DNA from: a phage
Reading direction: 5' to 3' (one strand)
Length of the DNA: 64,000 nt
Sequence record: PZ452610.1
This document shows, piece after piece, positions 20,800 to 59,252 of this stretch. Each line of letters begins with the position of its first letter. The stretch's first letter is position 1. The position numbers were made by a program, and so were the translations under genes. Below the pieces are notes generated by a model, which searched no databases, was not told the DNA's origin, and was given only the letters and a program-made list of their open reading frames with translations.

Positions 20800-21699
20800 T
20801 TATTCCTCGATTACGACATCTTCATATTTAGGTATATTATACGGTGAAGAAATTAAAGCATTAAAGTAGATGAACTCACCAAGACCTGGATGAAATACTT
20901 CTTCAGGATTTTCGAAATATTGAATCTTCGGACGTCCTTTAAGAATTTGATAGTACTCAGTTTTAGTTGGTTTAAAAATTCGAATCAACGCTTCTTCAGG
21001 ATACTTATTTCTGTCGAAGCTATTATTTGGATCGGTTATATAAAGCGGTTGACCTAATTGAATTGCGCATTCAACAACTTGTTCAAAACGATAGCATGGG
21101 TCACTAATTCGAAATGGATGAAAAATACCATCTAGATGAATAGGAGCCAAATCACCTACAAGACGCTGCATGATGGAAGGACGTATAACTTTCTGCGTTA
21201 CGATAATCTTATTACCATCTGCACCTGCGTTAACCAGCACTTCTTTTTGACGTTCATTCAACACAGTAGTTTGAAGTGAACGATTAACCGACAACATATC
21301 AGTTTTTAAGAATTCGTCAATATAAAAACGTGGTTTATTAGGGTCTGCAGTGATATTGAAATTGAATTCCACATCAAAAGCGCCGTCATATCCAGTGATA
21401 TCTGTGATTAAAAAATCACAATCATAATAAGCAATTAATGAATCAACAACAAATTCATTTTCAGACCAGAAATATTTACGAGTGTTATACGCGTTATCTT
21501 TATACCATAATGGAACAAACTTAAATTCTGGAAAAAGACGTTCGCATTCTTTAATATCAGATGCATTACGTGGATATGTAATCACATCACCCGGATTAGC
21601 ACGGTGCAAATGAAGTTGGAAGTTGCCATCCTTAAGGATAGCATACTGTCCAGTTTCATAAGACCGCATACTCAAGATTGGTACGCGGAAAATAGCCAT
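20800..21699 (-). CDS. Hypothetical protein, 299 aa, at the T4 beta-gt position
   Basis: ORF between uvsX and 42 where T4 encodes beta-glucosyltransferase; no similarity to beta-gt recognised. Confidence 0.55.
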   Translation of the reverse strand: MAIFRVPILSMRSYETGQYAILKDGNFQLHLHRANPGDVITYPRNASDIKECERLFPEFKFVPLWYKDNAYNTRKYFWSENEFVVDSLIAYYDCDFLITDITGYDGAFDVEFNFNITADPNKPRFYIDEFLKTDMLSVNRSLQTTVLNERQKEVLVNAGADGNKIIVTQKVIRPSIMQRLVGDLAPIHLDGIFHPFRISDPCYRFEQVVECAIQLGQPLYITDPNNSFDRNKYPEEALIRIFKPTKTEYYQILKGRPKIQYFENPEEVFHPGLGEFIYFNALISSPYNIPKYEDVVIEE

Positions 21700-22415
21700 T
21701 AGTCAAGGAATCCTTTAACATAATCAAAATCACGTTCAAACACATGGGCACTTACCATGGTATGAGTATAATCACCAACTTCTACCCCACATTCGTTAGC
21801 GATATAATGAAGTAATTTTCCTTGGAGATAAAAATCCAACTGCATAACAACAGCACAGTTCTGAGAACGCATATGACAGTGGGTATAAAGCTTACCATCA
21901 CGAATATAATAAGTCACTGAGTCAGTACATGGATATTCAAGCGTTTCGTCCGAATCAAGCAAAGCCTGATCAGAACTTTCTAGAATTTGGAACACAACTC
22001 TTCGAGAGTTAGGCTTCTCTTTAAGTTCTTTTAGAAGAGCTGGTAATTGGGCCGCAATGCGAGGACCATAGAAAGTGTTGAAGTTCGCCGGCAAAACATC
22101 TGATTTTGGTTTAGAAATAAATTTAGCGACATTAGGATATGCCTTAAACGCTTCTTCTGCGTTGGTACCACCAGAAATCATAAACTTCCAGAAGTCTTCG
22201 GCATATTCATAAGAGATGCGGTTAATACGTGGGTCGGTCATTTTGAATGATGATGGAGTGTCAACAACTACTGTCATAGACCCAATTTCATTACAACGTC
22301 CAATACGAGAATCAGTTACGAATTCCGGGTTTTCTAAAATTTCACGATTGACTGCTTTAAATGCGGTTTGAAAATCTGCGGCTTTGATATATTTCATTGT
22401 GTTATGTTTTCCCAT
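21699..22415 (-). CDS. 42: dCMP hydroxymethylase gp42 (thymidylate synthase family)
   Basis: 238 aa; TS-family motifs SRRVVF, active-site PC (EYPCTDS), MRSQN; T4 position. Confidence 0.8.
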   Translation of the reverse strand: MGKHNTMKYIKAADFQTAFKAVNREILENPEFVTDSRIGRCNEIGSMTVVVDTPSSFKMTDPRINRISYEYAEDFWKFMISGGTNAEEAFKAYPNVAKFISKPKSDVLPANFNTFYGPRIAAQLPALLKELKEKPNSRRVVFQILESSDQALLDSDETLEYPCTDSVTYYIRDGKLYTHCHMRSQNCAVVMQLDFYLQGKLLHYIANECGVEVGDYTHTMVSAHVFERDFDYVKGFLD

Positions 22416-22457: not shown

Positions 22458-22697
22458 TTATTTGAATTTCTTGACAATGTTGATATAACGTAAAGCTTCA
22501 GCATCGATACTTCCAAGAACACTATGAAGAAATGCATCAGCGTAGTATTCCAATTGAACAGGTTCTTTAATCACTTTAGCCGCTTTAGTTTCAAACAGGC
22601 CCATCAGGGCCTTTTTAAGAATTTGTTCGTTGCTGTTAATTTTCATAGTCAAAATCTCTTCATTAAGTTGGTGGTTAAAAGTTTTTCTAGAAATCAT
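22458..22697 (-). CDS. Hypothetical protein, 79 aa
   Basis: ORF in operon context. Confidence 0.45.
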   Translation of the reverse strand: MISRKTFNHQLNEEILTMKINSNEQILKKALMGLFETKAAKVIKEPVQLEYYADAFLHSVLGSIDAEALRYINIVKKFK

Positions 22698-23869
22698 TCC
22701 GGGTACCTCAAAGCGTCATCAGAGTTAGTTATATCAATAATAGATATAGAGTTTTCTGCTAACCCGTTTTTAGATAATTGACGTTTATAATATCTTTCAC
22801 AATATGTACACGTCGTCCCGCAGATTTCATTAGCACAATCGAAATCTGGATGTCTGAACCACCTTTTTTCTAAAAAGCCATCTAACAAAGAGGTTTCAAT
22901 ATTTACTGTATGTGAAAACTCAGTTTCGTTTTCAAGAGTGAAAATAGTCTCTAAAGGCTTCCACAGTTCTAACAAATTACCTTCAAACTTTTCAGAAGCG
23001 TATGCTTCAAGAACTTTCAAAATGTAGTCTGTGCTACCTGTACGTCCTGAAACTTTGAATTGAGTGATACCAATATCATTATAAAGTTTCAAATCTTGAG
23101 GACGAACAAAACGAGTTCTCAACCAGTTAAATGGGTCTGTATCACGAGCTTTAATACAGTGCTGCATAGGATATCCGTTTAAGGATTTAGCATCATCAGC
23201 TGTAACATCAGTACTATGGAAAATATAGCAAGAGTCACGATAGCTACAATGTGTTGTATACCCTTTACCAGCATTAGAACAGAACTCATTTACAAGAACT
23301 TCAAATATTATATTGTTCTTATTGCAAAACTCTGCTGCACGCTTCAGGAAAGAAACTGAACGGTTCTTATGAATTCCACAGCAGACCTTTTTGATATTAT
23401 ACTGGTCATGCAAGTATTTGATTTGAGTTACAGCATCGACATGTAGAATTGTTGAAACTTCAATCTCAATGTCTTTATTGACTTCACGAACAATTTCCAT
23501 AACAACAGGGTTAGCGATAGTAATACGCCATACGCCTATTGACCAAAGATACTGAACATAATCCTGAATAGCTTTCTTCTTCCACCCAACTAGTTCTCTT
23601 TTTGAACCAGGATTTATCGTGTTGAGTGTATAGTTAAAGCAAATACCTAATTCGTTACAACGTTTAACGTAATCTTCTAACATCTTTTTGTCAACGTCAG
23701 GAAGCCTAAAATCAGGTCTGGCTGCTACAAAAGCCATTTCTCTTGTAGAGCCGTATACTTCGTTTATCAAGCTATTAGGATAAGTTTTATTGAGCTCTAC
23801 GATTTTATCAAGAAGAGCTAAATCAAAATTCGTTCCAATTTTAAAAGTATTCATTTTTTTGCATCTCAC
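22694..23869 (-). CDS. Hypothetical protein, 391 aa, with C-terminal Cys cluster
   Basis: C-terminal CANEICGTTCTYC (C-x4-C-x3-C-x2-C); family not recognised; sits inside the sugar-nucleotide cassette. Confidence 0.6.
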   Translation of the reverse strand: MRCKKMNTFKIGTNFDLALLDKIVELNKTYPNSLINEVYGSTREMAFVAARPDFRLPDVDKKMLEDYVKRCNELGICFNYTLNTINPGSKRELVGWKKKAIQDYVQYLWSIGVWRITIANPVVMEIVREVNKDIEIEVSTILHVDAVTQIKYLHDQYNIKKVCCGIHKNRSVSFLKRAAEFCNKNNIIFEVLVNEFCSNAGKGYTTHCSYRDSCYIFHSTDVTADDAKSLNGYPMQHCIKARDTDPFNWLRTRFVRPQDLKLYNDIGITQFKVSGRTGSTDYILKVLEAYASEKFEGNLLELWKPLETIFTLENETEFSHTVNIETSLLDGFLEKRWFRHPDFDCANEICGTTCTYCERYYKRQLSKNGLAENSISIIDITNSDDALRYPE

Positions 23870-23910
23870 GTTAATTGATGCGATGGTTTTTGCAGGTCTT
23901 ACTTAAATTA

Positions 23911-24312
23911 TTATAGATTCGGTTTATATGATTTAAATGTTTCGAATTCGCCTTTATTCATAAGAGCTTTGAATTCGTCAGGACGCATAGCTTTGTCGTC
24001 GATAATCCAATCATATACTGGTTTATGTGTTAGCAAATTATGGTACTTCAAACCAATGTTTTCCAAGTTCTGAATCAGACTTGGGAGAATGTCAATTGCT
24101 ATACGACCAGGACCTACTGACTTCATACCGCGAGCAGTGTAAAGCGTTATGGTATGCCCTGCATCATACAGGGCATTAATAGCAGTCACCATTTCGACGT
24201 CTGGTTTGAAGTTCACGTAATCACGATTGTTATTCCACTCTGTTATACAATCATCGACATCAAAACAAAGATTAAGCATGTTTTCTACACGGTGCATTAG
24301 ATTCGTTCCCAT
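23911..24312 (-). CDS. HAD-superfamily phosphatase-like protein, 133 aa
   Basis: N-terminal FDVDDCIT (HAD motif I-like), TLYTARG (motif II), KPVYDWIIDD (motifs III/IV). Confidence 0.6.
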   Translation of the reverse strand: MGTNLMHRVENMLNLCFDVDDCITEWNNNRDYVNFKPDVEMVTAINALYDAGHTITLYTARGMKSVGPGRIAIDILPSLIQNLENIGLKYHNLLTHKPVYDWIIDDKAMRPDEFKALMNKGEFETFKSYKPNL

Positions 24313-26023: not shown

Positions 26024-26167
26024 CTAGTTAAAGCATTCATACTTTGCTTGTAGTCCAATCATAATCCATCCAATTACAAGTGTTGGAATCATTACTGGAG
26101 CCGTTAAGCTCCAGTAGATAGTCATGACAAGCATCAATAGTAAAAGTCCTATTGTTATTGCTTTCAT
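26024..26167 (-). CDS. Possible small membrane peptide, 47 aa (not in ORF track)
   Basis: ATG overlaps the TGA of the SIS gene (ATGA coupling); MKAITIGLLLLMLVMTIYW... hydrophobic. Confidence 0.3.
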   Translation of the reverse strand: MKAITIGLLLLMLVMTIYWSLTAPVMIPTLVIGWIMIGLQAKYECFN

Positions 26168-26799
26168 TGTTCGCCTCGTAACATGGCACCTAGTGCACCG
26201 CCTGGATGGAACTTAAGAAAGTCATTAGAGGTAAATCCACGTTCAGACGAAAGGTTGATAGCAAACGTATCGATAAGCGCTAACAACAATGTAGTGGACA
26301 TAGTCGGAGCCAGAGAATTCTCATCAACCTCTACCGCGATGCCTGTACAGAAAGAGTAATCAAAAAGGGCTTCATTTTCTTGCGGAATGTCTGGGTTACA
26401 ATGCAACAGAATCTGTTTGACATTTGGACGAATCATTTTAAGATGCTTAGCCACGCCTATCATTTCTTCAGTCTTACCAGAACGACTAATATGAATCAAC
26501 ACATCATTAGGCGCAATGAATCCTGCATCACCGTGAGAATAATGCCCAGTGTTCAAGTACATACTCGGGATACCGAGTGAAGCAAATGTCTCAGAAGCTT
26601 TAGTTGCAATATTAGCATTCTTACCAACACCTGTAATAATTACTCGGCTTTCATAATTACTAAGTCCAGGGCGTCGAAGAGTTTCTAGAATAGCATTATA
26701 ACGAGCAGGGTTTTGACTAATTACTTTGGCCATAGCGGCCAAAGAAGAAGCTTGTTTTATGATTGCGTCAATAGCGATAGTAATAGGAGTAGTTTTCAT
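26164..26799 (-). CDS. Arabinose-5-phosphate isomerase-like SIS-domain protein (KdsD/GutQ type, no CBS domains)
   Basis: 211 aa; VIITGVGKNANIATKASETFASLGIPS...HGD...HISRSGKT and C-terminal HPGGALG parallel the E. coli KdsD SIS domain. Confidence 0.8.
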   Translation of the reverse strand: MKTTPITIAIDAIIKQASSLAAMAKVISQNPARYNAILETLRRPGLSNYESRVIITGVGKNANIATKASETFASLGIPSMYLNTGHYSHGDAGFIAPNDVLIHISRSGKTEEMIGVAKHLKMIRPNVKQILLHCNPDIPQENEALFDYSFCTGIAVEVDENSLAPTMSTTLLLALIDTFAINLSSERGFTSNDFLKFHPGGALGAMLRGEQ

Positions 26800-41172: not shown

Positions 41173-41643
41173 TTAATCATGTTTCCACACCCCATTGGTA
41201 TTCGACCAAAGTCGCTGATTATCTGATCCTCGCCACAGTTTTTTGGTCGGAAGATTTTTCTCATACTTCCCATCAATAATAACATCAACATATTTAAGCA
41301 TTTCTAGTTGTTTAATATCTTCAAACTTATATCCTGTCCACAACCAAATGCTTTTATTGGGATAAATATTTTTTACTGTTTGAACAATGCAATGAACAAC
41401 ATCTCTATTATCAGGATAGAGAGGGTCGCCTCCGGTTATAGTCAATCCTTCTATATAATCATTATTCAAACATTCAATTAATTGTTCTAGTGTCTCTCCA
41501 GTGAATGGAGCACCATTTCTAGCGTTCCATGTTGATTTATTATAACACCCTTCACATTTATGCAAACAACCTGTAACGAAAAGAACGACCCTGCAACCAG
41601 GGCCATTCACAAAATCGCAAGGATAAAATCTATCATAATTCAT
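41173..41643 (-). CDS. nrdG: Anaerobic ribonucleotide reductase activating protein NrdG (radical SAM)
   Basis: 156 aa; Cys cluster CLHKCEGCYN; immediately downstream of nrdD. Confidence 0.9.
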   Translation of the reverse strand: MNYDRFYPCDFVNGPGCRVVLFVTGCLHKCEGCYNKSTWNARNGAPFTGETLEQLIECLNNDYIEGLTITGGDPLYPDNRDVVHCIVQTVKNIYPNKSIWLWTGYKFEDIKQLEMLKYVDVIIDGKYEKNLPTKKLWRGSDNQRLWSNTNGVWKHD

Positions 41644-43457
41644 TGGTGTTTAACCCTATGCATGATTTCTTTATTTTTACCGAGATTAAATCCGCGTTCG
41701 TTCGGATTTCCCAAATAACCGCATGTTCTTCTTATGGTGTTCATCTTTTTAGGATCAGTTTCTCCGCAAACTGAACAAACAAATCCGTTTTCAGTAGGAG
41801 TCATTTCATGGGTACTTCCACATGTAAAACATTTATCTACTGGCATATTAACACCAAAATAATCTAAATGTTGTGCAGCATAATCCCAGACAGCCTCAAG
41901 TCCCTTTAAATTGTTTTTCATATCTGGAAGTTCAACATAAGAAATGTGACCACCTGTCGCAATGAAATGATATGGCGCTTCACGAGAAATCTTTTCAAAC
42001 GGAGTAATATTTTCTTCTACTGAAACATGGAAACTATTAGTGTACCAGCCTTTATCTGTAACATCTTTTACACTTCCATATTTTTCTGTGTCTAGTTTAC
42101 AGAAACGATAACAAAGGTTTTCAGCAGGTGTAGAATACAAGCTAAAAGCAAACCCAGTTCTTTCAGTCCATTGTTTAAGAAGAGCATTCATTTTAGTTAA
42201 AATTTCTTGTCCAATATCACGTCCGACAAGAATATTCAATTCGTGGATACCAATGTATCCTAAAGACACTGAACTTCTACCGTTTTTAAATAACTCAATT
42301 ATGTCGTCATCAGGTTTAAGACGAACCCCGAATGCACCTTCTTGGTAAAGAATAGGAGCAACAGTCGCTTTAACTCCTTTTAAGGAACTAATTCTACACA
42401 TCAAGGCTTCAAAACACAGATCCATACGTTCATTGAATAATTCAACAAATTTCTGTTCATTGAACTGTGTTCCAATATAAGAATCTAATGCGATACGAGG
42501 AAGATTCAGTGTTACAACACCGAGATTATTACGTCCATCAAGAATTTCATTACCAGTCGAATCTTTCCATACGCTCAAGAAACTACGGCAACCCATTGGA
42601 GAAACTGGAACTGAAGAACCAGTAATAGCTTTATTATTCTTAGCTGAAATAATATCAGGATACATTCTTTTGCTTGCGCACTCTAGAGCAAGCTGCTTAA
42701 TATCATAGTTCGGATCGTCTTTATAAAGATTAACACCTTCTTCAACGAACATAACAAGCTTAGGGAAAATAGGAGTTATTCCATCACGACCAAGACCTTT
42801 AATGCGGTTTTTAAGAATTGCCTTCTGAATCATTCGTTCAGTCCAATCGGCCCCCGTACCAAATGTAATTGTTACAAAAGGTGTTTGTCCGTTTGAACTA
42901 AAGAGAGTATTTACTTCATATTCATAAGCTTGGAACGCGTCATAGACATCTTTTTCTGTTTTGGATTGAGCATAATTCAACGCATCAGCGATTTGCCATT
43001 TTTCCGCATCTTCAACATGTTTAGCGTATGTGCGTTTAACATAAGGAGAAAGAACTTTATCGACATTTGCAAATGTAGTTCCGCCATACTGATGTGAAGC
43101 AACTTGTGCAGTAATTTGTGCCATAATTGCAGTAGCAACACCAATCGATTTAGGCGTTTCAATTTGAGCATTGCCTAATTTAAATCCGTTCTCAAGCATC
43201 CCCTTTAAATCGACTAAACAACAATTAGTAAACGGAAGAGCAGGAGAATAATCAATATCATGCATGTGGATAATTCCACTTTCATGCGCATTCATAATAA
43301 AAGACGGGACCATATTTTTGGCAATGTGCTTAGACACAATACCAGCCATAAGGTCCCGTTGAGTTGGAAAAACACGAGAATCTTTATTAGCATTCTCGTT
43401 TAAAAGGTCTTTATTAGTTTTATGAATTAATCCTTCAATTTCTTTTTCAATTTTCAT
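41640..43457 (-). CDS. nrdD: Anaerobic ribonucleoside-triphosphate reductase NrdD (glycyl radical enzyme), uninterrupted
   Basis: 605 aa; C-terminal zinc ribbon CFTCGS...CSVCG and glycyl radical motif RRTCGYLGNP; no intron-like interruption. Confidence 0.95.
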   Translation of the reverse strand: MKIEKEIEGLIHKTNKDLLNENANKDSRVFPTQRDLMAGIVSKHIAKNMVPSFIMNAHESGIIHMHDIDYSPALPFTNCCLVDLKGMLENGFKLGNAQIETPKSIGVATAIMAQITAQVASHQYGGTTFANVDKVLSPYVKRTYAKHVEDAEKWQIADALNYAQSKTEKDVYDAFQAYEYEVNTLFSSNGQTPFVTITFGTGADWTERMIQKAILKNRIKGLGRDGITPIFPKLVMFVEEGVNLYKDDPNYDIKQLALECASKRMYPDIISAKNNKAITGSSVPVSPMGCRSFLSVWKDSTGNEILDGRNNLGVVTLNLPRIALDSYIGTQFNEQKFVELFNERMDLCFEALMCRISSLKGVKATVAPILYQEGAFGVRLKPDDDIIELFKNGRSSVSLGYIGIHELNILVGRDIGQEILTKMNALLKQWTERTGFAFSLYSTPAENLCYRFCKLDTEKYGSVKDVTDKGWYTNSFHVSVEENITPFEKISREAPYHFIATGGHISYVELPDMKNNLKGLEAVWDYAAQHLDYFGVNMPVDKCFTCGSTHEMTPTENGFVCSVCGETDPKKMNTIRRTCGYLGNPNERGFNLGKNKEIMHRVKHQ

Positions 43458-58676: not shown

Positions 58677-58890
58677 AAGGAATTTCCTCATCGGTGGCAA
58701 GGTCATATTCGACCAATTGGATAGGCTCATTAATACCATATCCACGTACAGTGATATCGGTTGTCGGATATTTTCCAGTAATATCACCCATTCTAAATGC
58801 TTCAGTGAATGATTGCTCGCCTGAGCAACTAAACCAGGCGGCAAAACATTTTAAAACATCTTCAGACCCTTCTATAATCAATTTAGCCAT
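58666..58890 (-). CDS. Hypothetical protein, 74 aa
   Basis: ORF immediately after the GrcA-like gene. Confidence 0.45.
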   Translation of the reverse strand: MAKLIIEGSEDVLKCFAAWFSCSGEQSFTEAFRMGDITGKYPTTDITVRGYGINEPIQLVEYDLATDEEIPYVD

Positions 58891-59252
58891 TATAGACTCT
58901 CAGTAAAGGTACGAGCGATAACGTCGCGCTGCTGTTCCGGGGTCAGAGAGTTAAAGCGAACTGCATAACCGGATACACGGATGGTCAGCTGTGGATATTT
59001 TTCCGGATGCTTAACTGCATCTTCCAGAGTTTCGCGACGCAGAACGTTAACGTTCAGATGTTGACCACCTTCAATTTTAACTTTAGGTTGATGTTCAATT
59101 TCAATTTCACGGGCATTCAAACCGTAGAAAATTTCCGGGTCTACAATAGCGTCTTCTTTAAAAGTCTTAGAGACGATAATCCGGGCTTGAGTACCGTCTT
59201 CAAAATAAATAGTGCCTTTATGTGCACCTTCAAGAATTTGATATGCTTTCAT
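58890..59252 (-). CDS. GrcA/YfiD-like autonomous glycyl radical cofactor
   Basis: 120 aa; C-terminal [25 protein letters not shown] is the glycyl-radical signature; SD GAGGT. Confidence 0.75.

Follow-up and report, generated by a model that had tools for sequence, protein, structure and literature searches.

What does a cysteine-rich protein of the U32 family do in the middle of a phage cassette devoted to DNA modification? The question is raised by a phage sequence of 64,000 nucleotides (PZ452610.1; this whole stretch is referred to below as the window), which belongs to a T4-like, RB69-like Mosigvirus and whose minus strand carries at 22694..23869 an open reading frame (ORF), hereafter the target, orthologous to RB69p050 (gp50). 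Over 7 kb around the target, the sequence agrees at 100% identity with E. coli O157 typing phages 3, 6 and 13, and at 98.4% with RB69. Our analysis demonstrates its family membership, the conservation of residues that are essential in its relatives, its fold, the patterns of its gene neighbourhoods and its distribution. The reading that we favour, with about even confidence, is that the target would be an iron-sulfur (Fe-S) enzyme hydroxylating deoxycytidine monophosphate (dCMP) at C5 in a prephenate-dependent and O2-independent manner, as a backup for the flavin- and O2-dependent enzyme encoded nearby.

Family membership, fold and conserved cysteines

An earlier note on this DNA had reported an unassigned protein of 391 amino acids (aa) at this position. 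The ORF is present on the minus strand and 391 aa is its maximal length, counted from a GTG codon at 23869; since homologs open with MNxFK and this GTG lacks a Shine-Dalgarno sequence, translation probably starts at ATG 23854 (Met6), which would give 386 aa. Unassigned it is not: Pfam Peptidase_U32 (PF01136) matches aa 99-291 with 42.2 bits (cutoff 22.4), and GenBank records already carry the name 'peptidase family U32 protein'. The same Pfam family is present in all but three of the 120 listed homologs, and phrog_5757 ('peptidase') matches the target at E=1e-266. Judged by this last match and by the invariance of four C-terminal cysteines in 103 homologs, the target ORF and its four-Cys tail are not products of chance.

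The AlphaFold2 model, built with the 103 homologs, reached a pLDDT of 93.5 and a predicted template modelling (pTM) score of 0.92. Foldseek placed the U32 TIM barrel 5d88 at the top of its PDB matches (E=2.4e-7, TM score 0.72 on the target chain); this was the sole specific match, the remaining ones being generic barrels. A sequence search of the PDB with the target returned nothing even at E<=1, and the protein therefore has no sequence-detectable relative with a solved structure. The homology search and structure prediction that the earlier note had proposed have thus replaced an unassigned protein by a U32 member with a 5d88-like barrel. Neither a GT-A or GT-B fold nor a glycosyltransferase profile appeared among the Pfam or structural matches, and no epimerase or mutase family or fold did so either; the target is not a glycosyltransferase, an epimerase or a mutase, as had been entertained for it. 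The 'missing transferase' for the first sugar is in fact a 299-aa neighbour at 20800-21699, the ortholog of RB69 gp46:47 (PMC13326640). A defence or anti-defence family was considered and rejected, PADLOC having given no match for the target.

Within U32, NCBIfam gave no TrhP or RlhA equivalog match, and its UbiU equivalog (NF047963) scored 17.6 bits at a cutoff of 440, so that the target is not a member. DUF3656, the mark of the RlhA subfamily, was absent by Pfam search. When the subfamily profile was compared with the four E. coli U32 paralogs, TrhP ranked best and RlhA next (19.8 bits). On these profile comparisons the target is a clear U32 member, but of none of the characterized subfamilies. 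The labels attached to RB69p050-type proteins ('peptidase', 'collagenase-like protease', 'sugar or heterocycle reductase') are accordingly misleading and are corrected here. A family unrelated to nucleotide or sugar metabolism, the outcome that the earlier note had named as speaking against its reading, is not what emerged: despite the name 'peptidase', the U32 proteins characterized by genetics mediate pyrimidine C5 and quinone hydroxylation (PMC5727448, PMC6599085, PMC10990095), and this is chemistry of nucleotides.

The residues of interest lie in two regions of the target:

23156..23302, minus strand: U32 core motif with E190, E195, C197, C208, C214 and C238, located by alignment
22799..22837, minus strand: C-terminal CX4CX3CX2C motif (C345, C350, C354, C357), aa 345-357, read from the sequence as CANEICGTTCTYC

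In an alignment of the target with the four E. coli U32 paralogs from the K-12 genome, E190/C208/C214 coincide with E162/C170/C177 of TrhP and E161/C169/C176 of RlhA, and C208/C214/C238 with three [4Fe-4S] ligands of UbiU (C169/C176/C193). The Glu and the two Cys of the motif are essential by mutagenesis in TrhP and RlhA (PMC6599085, PMC5727448). The position of the fourth canonical ligand differs among the known U32s, and the invariant C197, within an NEFC motif, is a candidate for this role in the target.

Nine cysteines (C163, C197, C208, C214, C238, C345, C350, C354 and C357) are invariant in the 103 homologs, which share 47-87% identity, and E190 is kept in at least 90% of this subfamily. 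A profile search of 1.84 billion cluster representatives delimited a small clade of 491 proteins at E<=1e-30. Almost all of the 130 best-scoring full-length proteins of this clade keep C197, C238 and the tail cysteines, the latter being present in ~112-118 of these more distant representatives; even clostridial relatives at 28-30% identity, often encoded as tandem pairs, bear a CX3CX2CX2C tail. Because of this near-universality we read the four-Cys tail as defining a clade within U32, and predict that it forms a second metal or Fe-S site. The cluster had been described as the end of the protein: the motif CANEICGTTCTYC is there, but some 34 residues come after it, which places it near the end only. 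The spacing of C350-X3-C354-X2-C357 would fit a radical-SAM motif; this reading was rejected on account of the fourth invariant cysteine (C345), the C-terminal position and the lack of a Radical_SAM Pfam match, in agreement with the absence of such a signature already remarked in the earlier note.

Chorismate mutase, the cassette and the distribution of U32

A tblastn search with the target against 50,697 phage records gave 222 matches, all at 80% identity or more, whose listed hosts were all Enterobacterales or Shewanella. Of 17 Straboviridae loci, 14 have a chorismate mutase gene, its product matching Pfam CM_2 above the cutoff, next to U32, in most cases with an overlap of 4 nucleotides (nt) at the U32 stop. 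The ORF with this overlap encodes a type II chorismate mutase both in Erwinia phage Virsaitis27 (CM_2, 44.6 bits; cutoff 27) and in Shewanella phage Thanatos-2 (32.8 bits), and the pair is kept together in Thanatos-2 despite a rearranged cassette. The Straboviridae enzymes retain R11, R28, K39, E52, S84 and Q88 of their E. coli counterpart. Chorismate mutase makes prephenate, and no other prephenate-using enzyme (e.g. a CmoA homolog) was seen among the annotated cassette genes. U32 is also the most conserved protein of the region, with a mean identity across genera of 85%, compared with 73% for the DNA polymerase, 81% for UvsX and 79% for the ThyA-like synthase. Its gene, alone or together with that of chorismate mutase, is an optional module, the cassettes being syntenic apart from it, and in a neighbour-joining tree the Straboviridae proteins form one tight clade nested in anaerobe-associated diversity, which suggests that U32 was acquired once by these phages. 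The adjacency of chorismate mutase and the cassette-neighbourhood patterns are new here.

The cassette of the window is tightly packed, all on the minus strand, in the following order:

26164..26799, minus strand: SIS-domain arabinose-5-phosphate isomerase, ortholog of RB69 gp55 (Pfam, PHROG, PMC13326640)
24297..25982, minus strand: bifunctional NTP-transferase/kinase, RB69 gp52:53 / AfhE-like, making NDP-arabinose (Pfam, PHROG, PMC13326640)
23911..24312, minus strand: HAD phosphatase, RB69 gp51 / AfhF-like (PHROG, PMC13326640)
22694..23869, minus strand: the target, U32 protein, ortholog of RB69p050 (ORF, Pfam, PHROG)
22458..22697, minus strand: 79-aa ORF, ortholog of RB69p049, phrog_8601; its start overlaps the target stop by 4 nt
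21699..22415, minus strand: ThyA-like protein, ortholog of RB69 gp48, flavin/O2-dependent 5-hydroxy-dCMP synthase (Pfam, PMC13326640)
20800..21699, minus strand: arabinosyltransferase 1, 299 aa, ortholog of RB69 gp46:47 (PHROG, PMC13326640)
20250..20798, minus strand: thymidylate-kinase-like (Tmk-like) nucleotide kinase, ortholog of RB69p045 (PHROG)

The DNA of RB69 bears arabinosylated 5-hydroxycytosine, not hydroxymethylcytosine (Lee et al., NAR 2026, PMC13326640). The homolog of 'gene 42', gp48, is a flavin-binding 5-hydroxy-dCMP synthase that takes its oxygen from 18O2, and the remaining cassette genes make NDP-arabinose and transfer it (PMC13326640). Therefore, the 'gene 42' between which and the HAD/kinase genes the target had been placed is a misnomer, its product being no hydroxymethylase, and the placement itself is right except that the 79-aa ORF intervenes on that side.

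This small ORF has no Cys and no Pfam family; it sits between the U32 and chorismate mutase genes in three phage loci (L018, L020, L025), adjoins U32 in another (L012), and is possibly a partner of U32. That it might be a degenerate chorismate mutase was rejected, for it has no CM_2 match at E<=10, only K39 aligns among R11/R28/K39/E52/Q88, and three phages have both this ORF and a real chorismate mutase. A promoter and terminator scan found no minus-strand terminator-like site inside the cassette. A sigma-70-like site (TTTAAA-16-TATAAT, 10/12 matches; window 23910-23937, minus strand) has its end at the HAD stop codon, leaving ~55 nt before translation of U32 probably starts; promoter-like sites in the cassette region are no more frequent than in shuffles. 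In several Straboviridae a gene for a Seg-like homing endonuclease (212 aa; L001:5352-5990, also in L013, L017, L020 and L021), which the window does not have, separates the HAD and U32 genes. In the Enterobacter-type phages of L013, L014 and L025 the NTP-transferase/kinase has 658-660 aa, an excess of ~100 aa, and a distinct gene for the SIS isomerase was not detected in the vicinity; in several other loci an ORF of 48-52 aa lies upstream of the NTP-transferase/kinase gene and clusters with it. A transposon-sequencing preprint on LC53 and Bas46 does not list which single genes are essential in these phages.

Homologs at 40-58% identity occurred only in uncultured sequences, including viral contigs of up to 294 kb and, in one case (L003), a 466-kb JGI metagenome contig with phage-like genes. 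For 46 non-Straboviridae loci with the close subfamily, neighbouring proteins were clustered and then searched with hidden Markov models (HMMs) built from Straboviridae proteins alone. Direct homologs of the first arabinosyltransferase stand beside U32 in 16 of the 46, of the AfhE-like NTP-transferase/kinase in 20 and of the SIS isomerase in 12; a Tmk-like kinase is found in most of them, and the minimal arrangement Tmk-like kinase, glycosyltransferase, U32 is recurrent in uncultured phages. No gp48-type gene was found in the 46 loci, of which only 8-10 kb on either side of U32 was covered. A six-frame search of the same loci with a ThyA-superfamily HMM, whose positive control was detected at E=1e-85, revealed a single ThyA, with L143, D169 and N177 and thus an ordinary dTMP synthase; IMGVR_UViG_3300045988_074298 gave no ThyA-superfamily match in the 26 of its 44 kb that were covered. 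Since these loci lack a gp48-type gene within that reach but have homologs of the pathway, U32 would fill the slot of the base-modifying enzyme in their cassettes.

The supply of prephenate recurs as a theme in these uncultured phages. A gene for 3-deoxy-D-arabino-heptulosonate 7-phosphate (DAHP) synthase was identified in 6-8 of the 46 loci, usually fused to chorismate mutase (CM_2 up to 71.8 bits). Such fusions lie beside U32 at L036:8411-9433, L039:7302-8357, L040:8332-9387 and L050:11085-12203, and also in L038 and L062; L006 and L024 have the DAHP-synthase domain alone. The fusions are shikimate-pathway auxiliary genes that would raise the supply of prephenate.

Genes of the dCMP-deaminase, dUTPase, deoxynucleoside kinase and NT5C types are found near U32 in distant loci and point to mononucleotide metabolism. 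On the 466-kb contig a gene of the dCMP-deaminase family shares its last 4 nt with the start of U32 (L003:7447-9086), and this pair comes after PolIII-alpha, uracil-DNA-glycosylase-family and thymidylate kinase genes; with the Straboviridae-only profiles no glycosylation genes were recognised there within 8 kb. Two U32 paralogs are clustered at L004:8001-15428 and in L059, from a metagenome-assembled genome (MAG) of Bacillota, with genes for a radical SAM/SPASM protein, an NT5C nucleotidase, a deoxynucleoside kinase, a nicotinamide mononucleotide (NMN) transporter and a nucleoside 2-deoxyribosyltransferase-like protein; the cluster adjoins dockerin glycoside hydrolases and may be a cellular or prophage nucleoside-modification system. 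In one phage with the minimal arrangement the gene after U32 (L033:11101-11994) has a sub-threshold match (E=1e-4) to PF20691, the TET-associated glycosyltransferase. This type of glycosyltransferase normally comes after an O2-dependent base oxidase.

Genome contigs bearing the subfamily derive mostly from obligate anaerobes or gut taxa, for instance Erysipelotrichales, Oscillospiraceae, Romboutsia, Lachnospiraceae, Tannerella, Phocaeicola, Gastranaerophilaceae and a Clostridia MAG from water-deer colon. The ThyA-like synthase occurs in 374 phage records, among them 57 of Acinetobacter, 20 of Rhizobium, several of Agrobacterium and one of Pseudomonas, and none of the 222 U32 matches is an Acinetobacter or Rhizobium record. 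Acinetobacter phage AB-Navy71 and Pseudomonas phage PspYZU05 have cassettes syntenic with that of the window, without the U32 module, and phages of facultative anaerobes often carry both the ThyA-like synthase and U32. The oxygen pattern holds in one direction only. The window itself encodes the anaerobic ribonucleotide reductase NrdD (605 aa) with its activase NrdG (156 aa) at 41173-43457 and a GrcA-like autonomous glycyl-radical protein (120 aa) at 58890-59252, all on the minus strand, and the phage is thus equipped for anaerobic synthesis of deoxynucleoside triphosphates.

A proposed hydroxylase and its rivals

We infer the Fe-S content, the use of prephenate, the independence of O2 and the identity of the substrate from sequence, context and the literature on relatives. 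The target would hydroxylate cytosine at C5 without O2, the oxygen atom coming from prephenate, and its substrate would most likely be the mononucleotide dCMP, giving 5-hydroxy-dCMP. This product would then join the route of the gp48 product, namely phosphorylation, polymerisation and finally arabinosylation on DNA. A [4Fe-4S] cluster is predicted at the canonical site (C208, C214, C238 and perhaps C197); the four cysteines of the tail would bind another cluster or a metal, by which the two electrons removed from the base would be passed on. The phage would then form 5-hydroxycytosine both with O2, through the gp48-type enzyme, and without it, through U32. E. coli is equipped in much the same manner, with TrhO and TrhP acting for 5-hydroxyuridine and UbiI/H/F and UbiU/V for ubiquinone. 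Among the roles proposed in the earlier note, that of a metal-dependent accessory enzyme comes closest in spirit: the characterized members of U32 are Fe-S proteins and its gene is optional in the cassette, the metal content of the target itself being predicted from its sequence.

Several points weigh against this proposal. The gp48 enzyme and a deoxynucleoside monophosphate (dNMP) kinase suffice for aerobic formation of 5-hydroxydeoxycytidine (PMC13326640), so that U32 must be dispensable at least in air. Only three of the four canonical Fe-S ligand positions of UbiU, TrhP and RlhA (C208, C214 and C238) are aligned in the target. The window phage has neither a chorismate mutase nor a DAHP synthase anywhere in its 64 kb and would depend on PheA and TyrA of the host for prephenate. 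We know of no U32 protein that acts on a free nucleotide or on DNA. As of 2024, hydroxylation in vitro had not been demonstrated for any U32 protein (PMC10990095). As to oxygen, anaerobic habitat was taken from MAG titles, the host and aerobiosis pattern rests on few independent lineages, and ~45 Escherichia/Shigella phage records (e.g. Dhakavirus VR5) have the synthase without U32 though their host is a facultative anaerobe. The absence of a gp48-type gene from the uncultured loci is itself bounded by the short reach of the regions covered.

The choice of substrate is where the main alternative arises. U32 might hydroxylate cytosine that is part of DNA, either following replication or by way of proofreading, to convert stray unmodified cytosines, and not dCMP. 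RlhA and TrhP do act on polynucleotides (PMC5727448, PMC6599085), the glycosyltransferases of the pathway act on DNA (PMC13326640), and the evidence from chorismate mutase and from the cassette context would fit equally well. The target is, however, a compact protein, a barrel of ~360 aa with its Cys tail, having no recognisable nucleic-acid-binding domain such as DUF3656. Tmk-like nucleotide kinases are its most constant partners outside the Straboviridae, and the overlap with a dCMP-deaminase-family gene in L003, together with the dUTPase, deoxynucleoside kinase and NT5C genes nearby, speaks for mononucleotide metabolism. We therefore regard dCMP as the likelier substrate and action on DNA cytosine as unlikely, while still the main alternative.

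The remaining roles fit the context poorly. RB69p050 is named 'Sugar or heterocycle reductase' in Table 1 of the RB69 study, the only place where it appears, the text making no mention of it (PMC13326640), and from this label one could derive a redox helper that would, for instance, reduce the flavin of gp48 or modify the pentose; the two predicted metal sites would suit electron transfer. The label, however, goes back only to fold matches to 5d88, no U32 member is known as a reductase, the adjacent chorismate mutase would be left unexplained, and U32 occurs in the 46 loci without a gp48-type partner to serve, all of which makes such a helper improbable. Still less probable is an RNA hydroxylase of the TrhP/RlhA type, which would act on tRNA or rRNA of the host or of the phage and so adjust translation during infection. 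The closest relatives that have been characterized do have such an activity, and the subfamily profile ranks them first and second, but the target has no RNA-binding extension and no TrhP or RlhA equivalog match, and its gene is embedded in DNA-modification cassettes of very different phages, beside glycosyltransferase, nucleotide kinase and sugar-nucleotide genes. A true collagenase-like protease is hardly credible despite the Pfam, PHROG and GenBank names and the collagenolytic activity reported for two other U32 members (discussed in PMC5727448), since no catalytic mechanism of proteolysis is known in the family, and a protease would give no reason for nine invariant Cys, for a partnership with chorismate mutase or for neighbours in nucleotide metabolism.

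Returning to the proposed dCMP hydroxylase, it is tempting to extend it beyond the window. With a little less than even confidence, we propose that phage U32 proteins constitute an O2-independent, prephenate-driven route to 5-hydroxypyrimidine DNA, one that backs up the flavin enzyme in T4-like phages of enterobacteria and is the sole hydroxylase of many uncultured phages that infect anaerobes, and that genomes with glycosylated 5-hydroxypyrimidines may be common in anoxic viromes such as that of the gut. Our full-text searches retrieved no paper tying U32 to phage cytosine modification, although the idea may have been published earlier. If the proposal is true, U32 hydroxylases would for the first time include one whose substrate is small and soluble, and the mechanism of the family could be tested in vitro. 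Such an enzyme, compact, made of one subunit and active on dCMP, with its co-substrate hinted at by chorismate mutase genes, adjacent or fused, would be an ideal model. The proposal would also explain how such phages replicate in the anoxic gut, where these coliphages largely live, the sole demonstrated phage route to 5-hydroxycytosine being one that needs O2. An O2-independent hydroxylase predicts oxygen-dependent phenotypes, which are of relevance to phage therapy and to studies of defence evasion. Furthermore, the presence of the subfamily in glycosylation cassettes of uncultured phages of anaerobes suggests a large unseen reservoir of hypermodified DNA, and the fusions of DAHP synthase and chorismate mutase suggest a new class of auxiliary metabolic genes.

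Comparison with known U32 proteins and dual-route systems

Most of the 12 U32 subfamilies are uncharacterized (PMC10990095), and the U32 hydroxylases are so far defined by genetics (PMC5727448, PMC6599085, PMC10990095). The only specific structural match, Mk0906 of Methanopyrus kandleri (5d88), shares the fold of the target but has 11% identity, 247 aa and no C-terminal Cys tail. RlhA (YdcP) resembles the target in the chemistry proposed for the latter. It is needed for 5-hydroxycytidine at position 2501 of 23S rRNA and depends on prephenate and on Fe-S biogenesis (PMC5727448), its product being a C5-hydroxylated cytosine as proposed for the target, and both proteins have a U32 domain, the essential Glu and two Cys, and further Cys in the C-terminal part, essential in RlhA. 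In contrast to the target, with its ~386 aa and a CX4CX3CX2C tail of its own, RlhA has 653 aa and DUF3656, binds 50S precursors and acts on rRNA instead of the deoxynucleotide or DNA proposed here; the similarity in sequence is low (profile score of 19.8 bits). In the RB69 study, RNA modification was also cited as a setting for pyrimidine hydroxylation, with reference to the RlhA and TrhP work and without a tie to gp50 (PMC13326640).

Within the cassette, RB69 gp48 and its DLP3 counterpart gp80 are encoded close to the target and would share its product, 5-hydroxy-dCMP. Unlike the target, whose function is predicted, gp48 is experimentally verified, and it has a thymidylate-synthase fold, a flavin and O2 as the source of oxygen. 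T4-like phages also carry the aerobic NrdAB. Together with NrdDG it provides an O2-dependent and an O2-independent enzyme for one precursor step, an analogy only, as other chemistry and other families are involved.

Pairs of aerobic and anaerobic enzymes are also found within U32 itself. When ubiquinone is made anaerobically, the place of the flavin/O2 hydroxylases is taken by UbiU and UbiV, two [4Fe-4S] proteins for which 18O labelling showed prephenate to be the oxygen donor (PMC10990095). Three [4Fe-4S] ligand positions of UbiU align with the target, for which the same role of anaerobic counterpart is proposed, but UbiU and UbiV work as a heterodimer, with UbiT, on a lipid quinone precursor. 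TrhP (YegQ), on the other hand, generates 5-hydroxyuridine in tRNA, is prephenate-dependent and works without O2, whereas the unrelated TrhO makes the same tRNA product using O2, and organisms of both regimes keep both enzymes (PMC6599085). TrhP differs from the target in its substrate, tRNA uridine, and in a C-terminal extension that the target lacks, the latter having its four-Cys tail; by analogy, the logic of an O2-independent U32 protein running parallel to an unrelated O2-dependent enzyme is the one that we propose for U32 and gp48 in the phage cassette.

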